Positions 1 through 6,000 of a stretch of 16,152 nucleotides of DNA are shown here, piece after piece. The stretch lies in assembly GCA_040752415.1 (NCBI GenBank), contig JBFMGU010000244.1:1-16152 (forward strand), in the 5' to 3' direction. How positions within the stretch are numbered: position 1 is the stretch's first letter; each line of letters starts with the position of its first letter. The stretch is from Myxococcota bacterium (GTDB taxonomy: Bacteria; Myxococcota; JACRCW01). Position numbers: made by a program.

Positions 1-3000
1 CCAGGAGCGGGAACTTCCCGGAGCCGGAACACGCGACCGGTCCCCGGGTCGGTCACGTGGATGGAGGCGTCCTCTTTGATGTCGCAGAGGATGTTGGCAA
101 TGGTGTTGGGGCCCTCCCCGATGTTGGCGAGACCCAGGCGCAACGCGCCGAGCCAGTTGTTGGCCTGGACGGTCAGTTGGACGTTGAAGCTGTCAGCATC
201 CTTGGCCGGGATGAAGACCTCAAAGTGAGGCATCGGGTGGGACTCCTATGGGGATTTGTCGACGGTCACAGGCACGGGAGGGGCAAGACGCCCGCAGGAA
301 TGGGCGGCCATGCTAACGACCCGCATTTTCCAGGGTCAAGGTGGCCTCCCCACAAAAGAAAAACGGCGCCAGGTTGCCCCGGCGCCGCTGCGGAAACAGG
401 AGGATGGGAGGCGCTCAGACCTGGGTCTGCATGGTCTGCTTGACGCCGCTGGTGGCCTTCTCCACCACCTTGCTGGTCAGCTCCAGCTCCTGGCTGAACT
501 TGTAGACGCCCGCCTGCATGGCCAGCAGCTCCTGGTTGGAGAACTGCTTGCCACTGGAGGCCTTGGCAATGATCTTGTCCAGCGCGTTCTGGCCGTCCAT
601 GACGCCGGACATCAGGCGACGGACACCGTCAGCCTTCTTGGGGTCCTTGACGGCTTCCACCGCCTTCACGCCGGTGGAGGGGTCCACGCCTCCGGTCTTG
701 GCGGCGTGCAGCACGTCCACGGCCTTGGTGGCCTCCTGCGTCTTCTGGACGTCCTGGACCTGCTGGGCCTGGTTGACCTGCTGGGAGAGCATCTTGTCGA
801 ACTTGTTCTCCATGCCGCCCTGCTGACCGCCCACCTTCTGGGCTTGCTGGGCCTGCTGCTGGACCTGCTGCATCATCTGCTGCGCGGCCTTGCCAAGTCC
901 GCCACCAATGGGGTCTGCCACGGCTACCTCCTCAAGGAGAACCAACCCGCCGGGGGGCGGGCTTGCGGAGAGTGTATCGCATCCGGGGGACGGCAGTTGT
1001 GTGGGATACCGGGATCCCTCAGTTGCGCGCCCGGCCCGGTGTCGCGGTGGCCGCTTCCCGCGTGATTTCCTGCAGGATGCGACTGAGCTTCTCAATGGCC
1101 TTGGCGTGCAGGCGGCTGGTCCAGCTCTTGGACAGGCCCAGCTGGTCGCCCACCTCCTGCAGGCTCAGCTCCTTGAAGTAGTACAGCGTGAGCAGCTTCT
1201 GTTCCTGCTCCGGCATGCGCGAGAGCGCCTCACGCACGTGCTTCTTCATCTCCACGTCGGCGAGGCGGGTGTCGATGGGGACGGCTTCCTTGTCCTCCAC
1301 CTGCAGGCCTTCCATGCCCTCCAGCGAGGTCACATAGATGGTGACGAGGTTGCTGACCTGCTCCGCCAGCTCGTTGATCTCGTCCTCGGTGGGCTTGTTC
1401 TCGGCGGTGGAGCCGGCCTGGCGGTCCGCCATGTTCTGCAGGAAGGCGTTGGCGCGTTCCTCAAAGCGGAGCTTGGCGTACTCGTTGCGGTTGACCCAGC
1501 CCATCTGGCGCAGGCCGTCATAGATGGCGCCGCGCACGCGGTAGTAGCTGAAGGTCATGAAGTTGGCGCCGAACTTGGGGTCGTAGCGGTCGGCTGCCTC
1601 CAGCAGGCCGATCATGCCGAACTCCATGAGGTCGTCGAACTCGATCTCCTTGGCCAGCGTCTTCTTGATCTTGCCGGCAATGGAGCGGACGAAGGGCTTG
1701 TACTGGTCAATCAGCGCGGCCTTGTCGACCTTGCCGTCCGGGGTGAGCGCGGGGCCACCCTTGTTGTTGCCCTTGGGCGGAGGGATGGCCCCCAGCGACT
1801 CTCCCAGGTTCTGCACCGCGACCTGCTTGGCGGCCGGGTTGGGCGGCGGTCTGGGGCTGGGCCCCGGGGTCCGCGGCACGGGTCGCGGCGTGGAACCGGG
1901 GATGGTGGGAAGCTTGTCTCGCATGCGCCGCCAGTGCCGTGTTTCAGGAGCGGGCCAGCTTGGCCAGCTCGGTTTGGAGCCTGCTCACGAAGGACGGGTC
2001 CGCCTCACACATCTCCGAGATGGACTCCTCCATGGCCTTGATGCCCACGCCCTTGGCGCCCTTCATCTTGTCCTTGACGACGAGGGACACGAACTTCCGC
2101 GTGGCCTCCTCCTTGGACGCCTTGCCGTCCTTGAGGTCTTTGGCCAGGCCCGTGAGCTCATCCAGCAGCCAGCTGCGGACCTGGCGGGCCTTCTCGGTGG
2201 AGTCCTCGGCGGCGCCGGTGGCGGTGACCATGCCCTTGAAGCTGGCCTTCTCCGCCTTGCCGGTCTTTCCGGTTTCCTTGGCACCGCCGGTGCCGGTGGT
2301 ACCCCGCGGCCCACCTCCCCTACCCACACGCATGGTTCACTCCTGGTAGGCCACGGGCTCGTTTCCGCAGCAGGTCAGACGCGATCAAAACAACCGGCCT
2401 CATGGGCATCAAGCAGCGCCCGCGCAAAGTCCGCGGCCATGCCCTTGGGGTCCTGGCTGATGGCGCGCTCCAGCTCGGCCTTCCCCTCGTCGAACTTCTT
2501 GAGGAACAAGAGGCTCTCCCCCACGTGGGCACGGGCCAGCGCGCTCTCCGGCGCCACCGACAACGCTTCCCGGTGACACTTCAGCGCCTGCTGGAACTTG
2601 CCCTGGGCGAAGAAGAGGTTGCCGAGGGCCATGTGGGGCACGTCGGAGTGCGGGACCAGGGCGGAGACGCCGGCAAAGACCTCCTGGGCCTCCTTCCACT
2701 TGCCCAGCTCCATCATGAGGTAGCCCGCCTCCAAGAGGAGAGCGACCTCCTTCTGGGGCACGGGGACAATGCCTTGGACCATTTCCTGGTTCATTGGGAT
2801 CTCCGCCTGGGTTTTCGCAGGCTAGAGGTGTTGGGCCCCACAAAGCAACAGGGCGGCCCGACGCAACGCCGGACCGCCCTGGTGTCAGATGCCCCGTCCT
2901 ATCAGCGGACGTTGTTGATGCTGTTCTTGACGGTGTCGTGCTTGGTCTTCAGCACGTTGGAGATGGTGGTGTACTGGCGGTTCTCGTTCTGCATCTTCTC

Positions 3001-6000
3001 CTGCAGCGTCAGGTACTGCATGGAGAAGGACATCTGCATCTCCTGCATCTTCTTGGTCTGGTTCAGCATGTCCTGCTGCGGGTTGCCCGTGGAGGCCACG
3101 TCCGTGCCCGCGCTGCCAAGACCGGTGCCGTTCCCGGGGATCTGCTGGGTGCCACCCGCGTAGCCCGTCCCGCCGGCGCCCATGGCCTGGGCACCACCGT
3201 TGACGGCGGCGGTGATGACGGTCCCACCCGGCACGAATGGCGCTGCCACCGAAGCCGCTCCGGCCGCGGCTCCGGCTCCGGTCGCAACGCCCGTACGCAC
3301 CATGGTCCCGAAAGAGCTGTTGGGAGTCTGCCGGGTGGAGCTCGTCTGGGTGGACATCTCCGTGGAGCCGCCCCGGGTGGTGTTGTTGGTGCTGACGATA
3401 GCCATGTTGTTCTCCTGTGTTGGGTGCCGTGGGGGAGTGCCCTCAAGGCAGCGAAGTTATCGCACCGGGCCCGTGGCAGTTGCTTCTCCCTGGGGGATCC
3501 AGGGCGGGCCCACCATCAAGGGAATCAGCGAGCCGCGCCTCCGCGCGCGCCTTTCTTCTTGGCGTCCGCGGGGTTGGCGGCCGGGGGACTGGCCAGCTTC
3601 TGCTTGGTGTTCCAGAGGTACTCCAGCAGCTCCTGGGCGTGCTGGTAGGCCTGCAGCGCCTTCTTGGCCCCGGCCTTCTCCTTGTTGTTGCCGGTCTTGG
3701 CCAGCTCCTCCAGCGCCGCCACGCGGGCTTCCAGGCCGGAGCGGTCCAGTGAGTCGGACTCAATCAGCTTCTCGATGGTGGGGAAACCCACGCCGGGGGG
3801 CGGCTCCTCCTTGCCCTTCTTCTTGCTGAGGGCGGCGGGCGCCGAGGGCGCCACGGGGCGCTTCACCGCGTCGCTGATCTTGAACGTGCCCATGCCGGGC
3901 GCGGTCTTGTCCTTGGACATGTGCTGGACCTCAGGGCGCCAGAGCCGACGCCAGACAGGGCTCGCATGGTCCGCGCCGCGGCCCCGCGCTGTCAAGGTAG
4001 GCCGCACGCGCGGTGGCTGCGTGGCCCGGCCGTGTGGGCCCTGGTAGGGTCCGCGACCCCGCTTGTTGGAGCACGCATGCCCCGCCTCACCCGCCTGTCC
4101 AGCCTGGCCTTCCTGCTTGCCCTGTCCGCCTGCCCCACCTGCGTGCAACCCGAGCCCGGTCCCGGACTGGAAGGCGACGAGTGCGGCGCGGAGCGGGAGT
4201 GCGACACGGGCCTGCGCTGCGTGGAGGCGCACTGCGTGGCGGCGGACCTGGATGGGGGCAACGGGCAGTCGTCGTCCGGCGGTGCTTCCTCCAGCAGCAG
4301 CGGCGCGCCCGACGCGTGGACGCCGGAGTGCAACATCAAGCTGGACTGCGCGGTGAACGGCAGCGTGGACGGACGGGATTGCGTGGACGGTCGTTGCGTC
4401 TGGCTCTCATGCGAGTCCGACCTGGAGTGCGGCGCACGCTTCTGCGTGGAAGGCAGGTGTGAGGACCGCACCCGCTGCGAGTCCGACGAGGAATGCGCGG
4501 GGGAAGGCGGCGTGTGCGAGGCGGGCGTGTGCGTGGCGGCCTGCGCCGACGACGCCCAGTGCAACGAGGGCGCGCCGCTGCCGGTGTACACGTGCTCGGA
4601 GGGTCGGTGCCGGCAGCGCTGCCTGGGCGACTTCACGTGCCTGCTGGAAGGCGGCATCTGCGAGGGCGGCGTGTGCATTCCGCCGCTGTGCGAGGTGGAC
4701 GAGGATTGCGCCGAGCAGGGTCAGTACCTGGAATGCGCCTCCGGCCGCTGCACCCCCTACGAGCCCTGCACCGACGACGCCGCGTGCGGCAGCGCGACCT
4801 TGTATTGCGCGGAGGACGGGAAGTGTCGCGACCGGCCGGCGTGCGCGCGGGATGCGGATTGCGCGGGCGGGTTGTGCGTCTCCGGCGTGTGCCAGCCGGC
4901 CGCGGAGTGCGGGCCCAACGTGCCGGCCTGCGGCCTCTCCGAGGAGTGCGTGGGCGGGGTGTGCGTGCCGGCGCTGGAGTGTCGCGGCACCGGGGATTGC
5001 GCGGCGCCCCAGATCTGTCGCGCGGGCGTGTGCGCGGACCCGCCCACCTCGCAGGTGGCCAAGATCGTCATCTCCACGCCGTACGGCCTGTGCGACCCGC
5101 TGCTGGACGCGCGCGCGGCCTGCACGCTGACCATGCGCCCCGGCGAGAGCGCGCCGCTGGGGGCGTTGGCGCTGGATGCGGCGGGCCGGATCCTGGTGGG
5201 TGTGGCGCTGACCTGGGCCACCGACCAGCCCAGCATGGCCGACGTGCTGGCCGGTCCCTCGACGGAGACGCTGCTGACCGCGGGCCTGGACAGTGGCACC
5301 GCGCGCATCACCGCCAGCGCGCAGAACGTGACCAGCCCGGCGGTGAGCGTGGTCAACCTGGGCGCTCCGCCCGCCGGCGTGCGCGTGGCCGTCACCGACG
5401 CACGCAGCGGCAGCCCGGTCTCCGGCGCGATTGTGCGCGTGAACGACCAGGAGGAGACCACGGGTCCCGCGGGTCTCGTCGAGCTGGAGCCGGAGGCCAC
5501 GAGCGCGCCCTACACCGTCAGCGTGTTCCACCAGGCCTTTGACTACGTGACCTTCTTCTCCCTGCCGGCCGAGCAAGGCGGTGGGCTGGACGTGGTCATT
5601 CCGCTGGCCTCGTTGCAGCCGCCGCAGCAGTCCGCGGGGCTGCGCGGCACGGTGAACCTGGAGTCCGCGACGAGCCAGGGTCCGGTGGAGATGGCGCTGG
5701 CCGGCGTGAGCGCGCCCAACGTGGCGGACCTCTCGTTCTCGCGCCTGCTCGGGGACACCATCTTCGTCGACATCGAGCTGCCCATCATCGGCAGTCAGCA
5801 GATTCCGCTGCCGGGTGGCATCACGCTCTCGGCGGAAATCCCGCTGGTGGGCGCGCAGACGTTCAAGGACTCGTTCTACGCGCTGGGCAGCGGTGGGCGG
5901 CGCATTGCGTGGGCGTTCGGCGGTCGCCTGCCGTTTGCGGCGGTGCAGGGCCTGTTGGGACTGGGTGACCCCGTCACCGCGATCCTGGCGCTCATCCCGT

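Follow-up and report, generated by a model that had tools for sequence, protein, structure and literature searches.

[quoted passage not shown]

The window analysed here, a whole stretch of 16,152 nucleotides from a Myxococcota bacterium, harbours a needle cassette of a secretion system of type III (T3SS) that also contains a FliA-type sigma factor gene, which raises the question of whether this sigma factor reads a promoter of its own and which genes such a promoter would control. The genome-wide survey's note had described a sigma-28-like promoter, CAAC-N16-CGATA, marking the needle and inner-rod genes as well as dispersed genes for exported proteins, and had attributed it to the cassette sigma factor. 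The best overall explanation of our results, to which we assign a probability of about 0.75, is a dedicated sigma factor acting through its own promoter and with an exported partner.

The needle cassette and its promoter-like sites

The needle-like (SctF-like) protein (2902-3405, minus strand, as for all features below; 167 aa) combines a S/T-rich N-terminus and a Gly/Ala-rich middle part with a 60-aa helix at the C-terminus, and homologues were found in 254 of 301 genomes of the phylum. For its C-terminal alignment, T3SS_needle_F was the most frequent Pfam family (13/48 at E<=1, best 4.2e-4), TIGR02105 matched 2/47 members (best 0.002), and two of the four PDB matches were needle-type chains (E 0.07 and 1.3). 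The structure model shows one long C-terminal helix (pTM 0.27), for which a fold search returned generic coiled coils, and a homologue search with the needle tail returned only unnamed matches of myxobacterial type. Within the T3SS locus, the gene adjoins that of a SctG/CdsG-like TPR chaperone (2375-2794; NF052304 CdsG, E 1.6e-8, below cut-off) and, as in most cassettes, directly follows a gene coding for a helical protein (3525-3920; 131 aa), which by position would be the needle co-chaperone SctE, a name for which no family or PDB support was found. The inner-rod-like (SctI-like) protein (415-921; 168 aa) matches NF038054 SctI at E 0.029, below cut-off, and its gene directly precedes sctJ in loci L044, L056, L028, L070 and L058. 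Sub-threshold profile matches together with gene order make the needle and rod names putative. Among the core genes, non-flagellar sctV and sctN were detected above cut-off and sctJ at 126 bits below cut-off; they lie on three other contigs, the core genes being dispersed in this genome.

Two copies of CAAC-N16-CGATA occur in the window, both on the minus strand (975-999 and 3458-3482), where 0.03 matches are expected. The former (ACAAC-N16-CGATAC, 15.4 bits) lies between the sigma and rod-like genes, its end 53 nt from the rod-like start, and the latter (GCAAC-N16-CGATAA, 22.1 bits with its own family left out) lies 5' of the needle-like gene, 52 nt from its start; the gene of the 131-aa protein has no site upstream. 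The placement of the motif before the needle and inner-rod genes is thereby borne out, none of 200 shuffles having given two copies.

Throughout the genome, using gene calls made in this analysis, the exact pattern with a 16-nt spacer gave 27 matches, 26 of them intergenic and 20 in sense orientation within 300 nt upstream of a gene. A 17-nt spacer gave 14 (6 intergenic, 3 upstream), and the 12 remaining spacers of 10-23 nt gave 1-12 matches with 0-2 upstream each. The excess previously noted for spacings 16-17 (29 upstream against 10 reverse) therefore stands, although its exact counts do not, our recount giving 23 in sense and 9 in antisense orientation. When a matrix was derived from 35 sites of relatives alone, with no site of this genome among the seeds, the intergenic sense-upstream sites that it identified numbered 24 at scores over 16 bits, where other spacers lead one to expect about 2, and 36 at scores over 14 bits, with an expectation of about 6-7. 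In the -10 box, CGATA is followed by A in 32 of the 35 seed sites and the register is kept in degenerate sites, while the extended GC before it is kept weakly. The -35 box is GCAAC, not the sigma-28 TAAAG, and TAAA-N14..20-CGATA has no match in this genome. Compared with a relative about 96% identical (RNA-run contigs), the -35 box is unchanged among the changes listed, which stop short of the -10 box.

The cassette sigma factor and the distribution of the motif

Relatives were scored with each family left out of the matrix (more than 10 bits, within 220 nt, the window's own genes counted in). Sites were found before 30 of the 42 needle-like genes of sigma-type cassettes and 18 of the 35 rod-like genes, with none on the reverse strand; by the same thresholds, 12/42 and 17/35 had none. 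Neighbouring cassette genes were nearly devoid of them (sigma 0/42, TPR 2/44, gene X 2/27, upstream helical gene 1/33), as were needle paralogues outside the sigma-type cassette (0/12). These figures agree with those reported before, namely 29 of 43 needle-like loci with none reversed and 0-2 per neighbouring gene family.

The 16-nt spacer outnumbered the 19-nt one in 39 of the 44 genomes with a sigma orthologue (1662 vs 924 matches) and in 15 of the 32 without (621 vs 564), an association of motif excess with sigma presence that gives p 1.7e-5 over 76 genomes in which kin are not independent. The 19-nt spacer served as control in place of the reversed pattern, whose depletion even in genomes lacking the sigma factor led us to abandon it. 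The six genomes of group f15, where the orthologue is absent, have only 1-4 motif copies. Three complete genomes (G157, G188 and G281) have no FliA-type match besides the cassette gene; their other sigma genes, by length and span, were judged RpoD-like or sigma-32-like. In G157 and G281 the site is present before the needle gene. The sole other genome of the family (G011, 92% complete) has the full set of sites, needle-tailed targets and a non-flagellar sctN; the cassette sigma, X, the short needle and a non-flagellar sctV were not found in it, and the FliAs found are of flagellar type only, the missing cassette being likely an assembly gap.

The sigma factor itself (1019-1924; 301 aa) matches Pfam regions 2 and 4 above cut-off and FliA as its best PDB matches (E 1e-27). 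Against TIGR02479 it scores 160.5 bits, below the curated cut-off of 189.6, and the flagellar FliA of this genome likewise falls below it (181.8 bits). Region 3 has diverged and region 4.2 is altered (SKSW..R.H), SESRVSQLH of FliA having become SKSW.SR.H in the 42 orthologues, with S199, K200, S201, W202, R205 and H207 invariant in all of them. In region 2, R74, D81 and R84 of E. coli have invariant counterparts and R91 is kept in 29/42; we take the residues matching these E. coli FliA positions to be sigma-28 contact residues. The genome indeed contains three FliA-like genes, as reported, one of them an orphan on contig C168, and in a quick tree with long branches the other two lie far from the cassette sigma. 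Its fliC, flgM and three neighbours carry instead CT(C/T)A(A/G/T)(G/C)-N14-TG(C/A)CGA, a motif with 17 matches, 12 of them upstream (5 of these being seeds), and no score above 8.7 was obtained with the CAAC matrix for eight genes of the flagellar cluster. The link between sigma and promoter is thus supported by its tracking over 76 genomes, by the three complete genomes with a sole FliA-type gene and by the separate flagellar motif; judged from sequence comparison, the cassette sigma very probably reads CAAC-N16-CGATA.

Putative targets and a predicted partner

None of the core genes tested (sctV, sctJ, sctN and sctO) has a site, scores reaching at most 3.6. S/T/N-rich N-termini devoid of a signal occur in 10 of 36 targets and 321 of 5058 background proteins (6.3%), an approximately fourfold enrichment, under a rule set after the sequences were seen, that agrees with the T3SS-like N-termini reported earlier. 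The six needle-tailed genes of this genome score 22.2, 15.7, 11.3, 11.0, 7.4 and 2.5. Further targets include a signal-less amidase, CHAP, GH19 and peptidases, and among ten proteins with peptidoglycan-binding domains found here none has a hydrophobic signal and eight exceed a score of 8, with reverse scores no higher than 5.1. Lipoprotein-like genes constitute 7 of the 36 top targets, five of them at 18-24 bits, compared with a background of 10% (p 0.07); they code for FG-GAP, Ig-like, transglutaminase, M23 and DUF7107 domains, some behind strong sites. In G109 and G157, 27 of the 28 strict sites lie between genes. Of the 23 proteins encoded downstream, 11 satisfy the N-terminus rule and one has a hydrophobic signal; amidase, CHAP, S8, M4, endonuclease I and DUF1521 proteins are among them.

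The earlier characterization of the targets as T3SS-type exported proteins holds for the enrichment in signal-less proteins of exported type and has to be widened to lipoprotein-like genes. Similarly, likening them to late, class III genes suits a set of exported substrates, but 'late' is loose because an injectisome exports needle and rod before its other substrates (excerpts of PMC3459982). The regulon looks like one of exported substrates, and we consider it likely that the secretion machine exports them.

Gene X (1944-2333; 129 aa), unannotated and immediately upstream of the sigma gene, codes for a protein with a low-confidence Gly-rich N-terminus and a helical domain, and its role as predicted sigma partner is an addition to the survey's note. 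Prediction of the X-sigma complex scored 0.84, the best of three controls scoring 0.00; of 157 solved complexes 116 attained that value, as did 2 of 215 mismatched pairs. Runs share at least 70% of contacts, and partner pLDDT is at least 66. The predicted interface involves mainly sigma residues 85-132, a stretch in which FliA's region 3 has diverged in sequence; its conservation is slightly above that of other residues (0.53 vs 0.48; 0.48 vs 0.42) and was left out of the evidence. X is single-copy and, among the 76 genomes, occurs with sigma in 41 and alone in 2, sigma alone being found in 3 (G074, G005 and G008, where X was not detected) and neither in 30; X co-occurs with the whole cassette, and hence not specifically with sigma. 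G003, which first appeared to have X without sigma, has a divergent sigma orthologue, and the X gene of G021 is at the end of a contig. The start M-x(1-3)-[IV]-[GNDSTQ], a pattern set after the data were seen, is present in 27/32 X proteins, 17/36 targets and 841/8490 genes, and no X protein has a hydrophobic signal. The X family corresponds to no Pfam family, its Atlas neighbours are Myxococcota hypotheticals only, and the fold search gave a best Z of 6.3 with poor rmsd. Homology to FlgM was considered but gained no support, FlgM appearing for 0/27 members among the Pfam families listed and a profile comparison with this genome's FlgM giving a probability of 1.5%. On the strength of the model, X quite probably binds sigma; that it is an exported inhibitor, and so a candidate secreted anti-sigma, is an even bet.

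Proposed mechanism and comparison with known systems

We propose that the sigma of the cassette is a sigma-28-family paralogue dedicated to the 'long locus' (T3SS*) non-flagellar system; it would keep the -10 CGATAA and read an altered -35 GCAAC, and so would work apart from flagellar FliA. It would transcribe the genes of the two subunits, needle-like and rod-like, of needle-tailed and DUF1521 proteins and of signal-less hydrolases, in addition to a SycD-chaperone operon and some lipoprotein genes, the export core remaining outside the set. X would bind the region-3 helices of sigma and hold it off until its own export, so that the making of substrates would depend on a functional export gate. 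More tentatively, the earliest-branching non-flagellar T3SS may keep a flagellum-style checkpoint with an exported MXAN_2436-like anti-sigma of a new family, its promoter marking a T3SS* secretome that comprises a real needle and prey-lysing signal-less hydrolases.

Other readings of these data have to be weighed. The motif might have another reader, be it the flagellar FliA, the orphan FliA of C168 or a sigma of some unrelated kind, the cassette sigma being a mere neighbour, as the three FliA-like genes here and the sites of G011, with its flagellar-type FliAs, would allow; the presence of the site in complete genomes that have just one FliA-type gene, the separate flagellar motif and the 1-4 copies of the f15 genomes make this very improbable. 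X might instead act as a co-activator, or as a subunit stabilising the sigma, and complete its diverged region 3 in a two-part sigma, in keeping with a predicted interface at residues 85-132, whereas FlgM binds sigma regions 2 and 4. The target-like start shared by 27/32 X proteins, their lack of a hydrophobic signal and the three genomes with sigma and undetected X nevertheless render it unlikely. We find it similarly doubtful that the sites define a general envelope or predation regulon that includes secretion substrates and has no export feedback: site-bearing lipoprotein genes, some with strong sites, speak for it, but lipoproteins exceed background only at p 0.07, against a fourfold excess of export-type N-termini and a signal in just 1/23 targets of G109 and G157.

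The dedicated sigma factor preferred here has a counterpart in Myxococcus xanthus, where the cassette maps to MXAN_2433-2438, at the head of the 'needleless' T3SS*: needle-like protein, TPR chaperone, X, sigma and rod-like protein are homologous to MXAN_2434, 2435, 2436, 2437 and 2438, respectively, with sites placed from the homologous G109 locus. T3SS* is needed for prey lysis and is described as needleless, with no substrates named in the available parts of PMC12075869 and PMC10849154; reviews likewise describe a myxobacterial system without needle and secretin. In the PMC9548883 supplement, six site-linked genes follow MXAN_2434 with a median r of 0.83, compared with 0.13 for 20 other cluster genes, while MXAN_2436 and MXAN_2437 do not follow it (r 0.52 and -0.09). 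In a second transcriptome (PMC11804543), the prey response gives p 0.03 for first genes and 0.09 with operon genes, and site-linked genes reach r 0.41 vs 0.13. Co-variation of site-bearing genes in one predation transcriptome supports the regulon, the second lending it weak support. The promoter gives a sequence handle for listing candidate substrates in any myxobacterial genome and points to MXAN_2434 as a needle-like subunit. Deletion of MXAN_2437 should switch the target set off, and that of MXAN_2436 should switch it on; the published mxan_2438-2451 deletion left needle, X and sigma intact. In evolutionary terms, the data suggest that the first injectisome-type systems kept the flagellar sigma-28 layer and re-tuned its -35 box, so that both systems could run in one cell.

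Flagellar class III promoters read by FliA have the form TAAAGTTT-N11-GCCGATAA (excerpts of PMC2859248 and PMC7286023). The system described here resembles FliA/FlgM in its sigma family, its -10 CGATAA, a similar spacing, the control of exported substrates and a partner of small size whose N-terminus is flexible. It differs in the -35 GCAAC, region 4.2 and its non-flagellar setting, in a partner without likeness to FlgM and predicted on region 3, and, unlike flagellar class III, in a regulon to which the first substrates, needle and rod, belong. Bordetella BtrS/BtrA similarly joins an injectisome-linked sigma to secretion through an exported antagonist (excerpts of PMC10732220), although BtrS is an ECF sigma and the present one FliA-type, and the export and inhibition by X are inferred. 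The literature searched, mostly non-subscription, contained no relevant description of this sigma-promoter system. In G109 the homologous cassette stands at the head of the sctJ-L-N-O-Q-R-S-T-U...V cluster, corresponding to T3SS* mxan_2434-2464 (PMC12075869) or the 'Myxo long locus' (PMC3459982), of which the available portions contain no description of a needle, a sigma or a promoter (0 occurrences of 'FliA', 0 of 'sigma'). The lengths of MXAN_2434-2437 match those of the cassette genes; a difference is the dispersal of the core genes here. The needle cassettes of Ysc, Psc and Chlamydia Cds have the order SctE-SctF-SctG. Unlike SctF, the present subunit has about 170 aa, a long low-complexity N-terminal part and profile matches below cut-off, but the cassette shares with those systems the succession of helical protein, needle-like protein and TPR chaperone, together with a putative needle-type C-terminus.

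Promoter-like sites in the needle cassette

The window is contig C162 in full, from an 11.0 Mb assembly of 69% GC; the relatives identified by name are MAGs of Myxococcota and Deltaproteobacteria. Its minus strand carries a six-gene cassette, which encodes a helical protein (3525-3920), the needle-like protein (2902-3405), a TPR protein resembling CdsG (2375-2794), the product of gene X (1944-2333), the FliA-type sigma (1019-1924) and the rod-like protein (415-921). Elsewhere in the window, a Cys-rich lipoprotein-like gene (4077-6863), SelB (6864-8804) and an Smr-domain gene (12758-13483) showed no connection with it.

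The promoter-like motif CAAC-N16-CGATA that the genome-wide survey's note had described was confirmed, with two matches in the window against 0.03 expected and a genome-wide excess at spacer 16. The exact pattern occurs 27 times with this spacer (26 intergenic, 20 upstream in sense, according to our own gene caller, which covers 87% of bases), 14 times with spacer 17, and 1-12 times with each of twelve other spacers (0-2 upstream). Because circularity was to be avoided, the scoring matrix was drawn only from other genomes (35 sites; consensus (A)(C)GCAAC-N16-CGATAA(T)); in this genome it retrieves 24 intergenic sense-upstream sites above 16 bits against ~2 expected, and 36 above 14 bits against about 6-7.

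Needle-like homologues are present in 254 of 301 genomes of the phylum, a tally that takes in G180, of which all other results are independent. Among 76 of these genomes, picked to span families, 60 loci were retrieved, in which the cassette gene order was found again across many families. When each family was left out of the matrix, sites above 10 bits preceded 30 of 42 genes for needle-like proteins and 18 of 35 for rod-like ones (reverse strand, 0 in both) and only 0-2 of 27-44 for each of the four remaining cassette genes. Twelve paralogous loci lack TPR, X and full sigma, with needle and rod genes adjacent in 11 and separated by a short sigma in one; the site stands before 0/12 of their needle genes and 1/12 of their rod genes, and two of them, examined at full length, agree with the 'short locus'. 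The motif is a conserved feature that belongs to a single type of cassette.

In eight loci devoid of an intergenic rod site (L044:9993 and seven related loci), a promoter-like site of 14-20 bits is found 320-366 nt upstream, inside the sigma coding sequence; in L050 and L054, where that stretch of the sigma is missing, the intergenic site is present. Coding constraints could alternatively cause this pattern. The 212 exact motif copies in the whole G028 genome, versus 32 controls, suggest that the regulon there is very large or that the motif is part of a repeat. Needle-like genes are tandemly duplicated in L033, L076, L077 and L028.

Candidate targets and the link to Myxococcus xanthus

In this genome sites precede genes for needle, rod, needle-tailed, DUF1521 and PG-binding proteins (one with GH19) and for a calpain-like peptidase, an operon that includes two SycD-type chaperone genes, a pair of genes of which one encodes a Fic protein, several lipoprotein genes and many unknowns. 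Matrix scoring placed no site upstream of its sctV, sctJ, sctN or sctO; two secretin genes lie elsewhere in the genome. Targets in G109 and G157 include amidase, CHAP, S8, M4 and endonuclease I proteins, almost all without a hydrophobic signal, some starts probably being called too far downstream.

Several target loci have features of their own. The chaperone operon (L088, C401:37505-43784) carries two sites and encodes, besides a pair of SycD-type TPR chaperones, three unknown proteins of 313-437 aa; it may represent a translocon-like set, though the system is said to have none; a similar chaperone region occurs in L045, where two opposite-strand 74-aa genes (5854-6075 and 8269-8490) share identical N-terminal 50 residues and have weak sites (13.5 and 13.8 bits). 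The needle-like C-terminal helix ends six proteins of 344-633 aa (on C82, C32, C499, C417, C41 and C454), possibly minor needle, tip or hybrid subunits. In L079 (on C232) a site of 24 bits stands before a gene of 71 codons that is coupled to one for a Fic-domain protein of 904 aa; this could be a toxin-antitoxin pair or an exported enzyme. In both L082 and L093 a protein with a trigger-factor C-terminal domain, possibly a dedicated chaperone, is encoded after a Gln/Thr-rich gene that bears a site.

The cassette of G109 stands at the head of a complete cluster of the long-locus type, to which the M. xanthus 'needleless' type III system also belongs. The lengths of MXAN_2434-2437 (567, 432, 396 and 837 bp; PMC9548883 supplement) agree in order with those of the needle-like, TPR, X and sigma genes. 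MXAN_2439 encodes SctJ, and the sigma gene contains a match to a primer published for the mxan_2438-2451 deletion. Six site-linked genes, assigned by transfer of G109 sites, correlate with MXAN_2434 across 10 samples in that supplement at a median r of 0.83, versus 0.13 for 20 others (the set excludes MXAN_2457 and 2460, whose values are <10, as well as 2433 and 2439), and the seven genes rise with prey (log2 0.69 versus 0.15). The signal is weaker in a second data set, PMC11804543, from which MXAN_2460 and 2461 are absent. A search of the Cappable-seq supplement of PMC8844925 gave no MXAN_243x rows.

The cassette sigma and its predicted partner

The survey had read these genes as a regulon of the cassette sigma, from gene position; that interpretation is supported, with refinements, by orthologue co-occurrence, single-FliA complete genomes, a separate flagellar promoter and a changed region 4.2. 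The orthologue, clearly set apart from other FliAs (>140 versus <100 bits), is present in 44 of the 76 genomes, and spacer 16 exceeds spacer 19 in 39/44 genomes with it and 15/32 without, kin not being independent. It is the sole FliA-type gene found in three complete genomes, two more having an additional weak match (55 bits). The full flagellar cluster of this genome includes a FliA and a FlgM of its own, and the flagellar genes use a different promoter, about CTCAAG-N14-TGCCGA, which stands upstream of fliC and flgM and of several receiver-domain-like genes (on C24 and at dispersed sites). In the cassette sigma the counterparts of E. coli R74, D81 and R84 are kept, as is that of R91 for the most part; we take these residues to be -10 contacts. 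Together with the changed region 4.2, this fits a shared -10 box with a new -35 box.

Counter-evidence comes from G011: sites are present there, as are a non-flagellar sctN and five needle-tailed proteins, but neither cassette nor non-flagellar sctV was found in its 92% complete assembly. An orphan FliA-like sigma lies amid two-component genes at C168:55823-56569. The short sigma of G023 (L066:8866-9380), with regions 2 and 4 and no region 3, overlaps the needle gene stop and sits between needle and rod, where the site is weak (5.0 bits); X was not found in that genome.

Gene X is single-copy; 41 genomes have both it and the sigma, 3 the sigma alone, 2 X alone and 30 neither, and many of these genomes also built the X profile. 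Its N-terminus resembles that of exported targets. In the predicted complex X would wrap sigma residues 85-132 with a score of 0.84 (best control, 0.00), a mark reached by 116/157 solved and 2/215 mismatched pairs, counts that hold only roughly here since our own alignments were used. Searches of X gave no resemblance to FlgM, no clear match to a known fold and no comparable complex among solved ones. We regard X as a candidate exported anti-sigma; the main rival reading would make the same predicted partner a co-activator of the sigma.

No prior description of the promoter, the sigma role or the partner was found in the literature covered, which included few subscription papers. With these refinements, we read the system as a putative variant of the sigma/anti-sigma secretion checkpoint.
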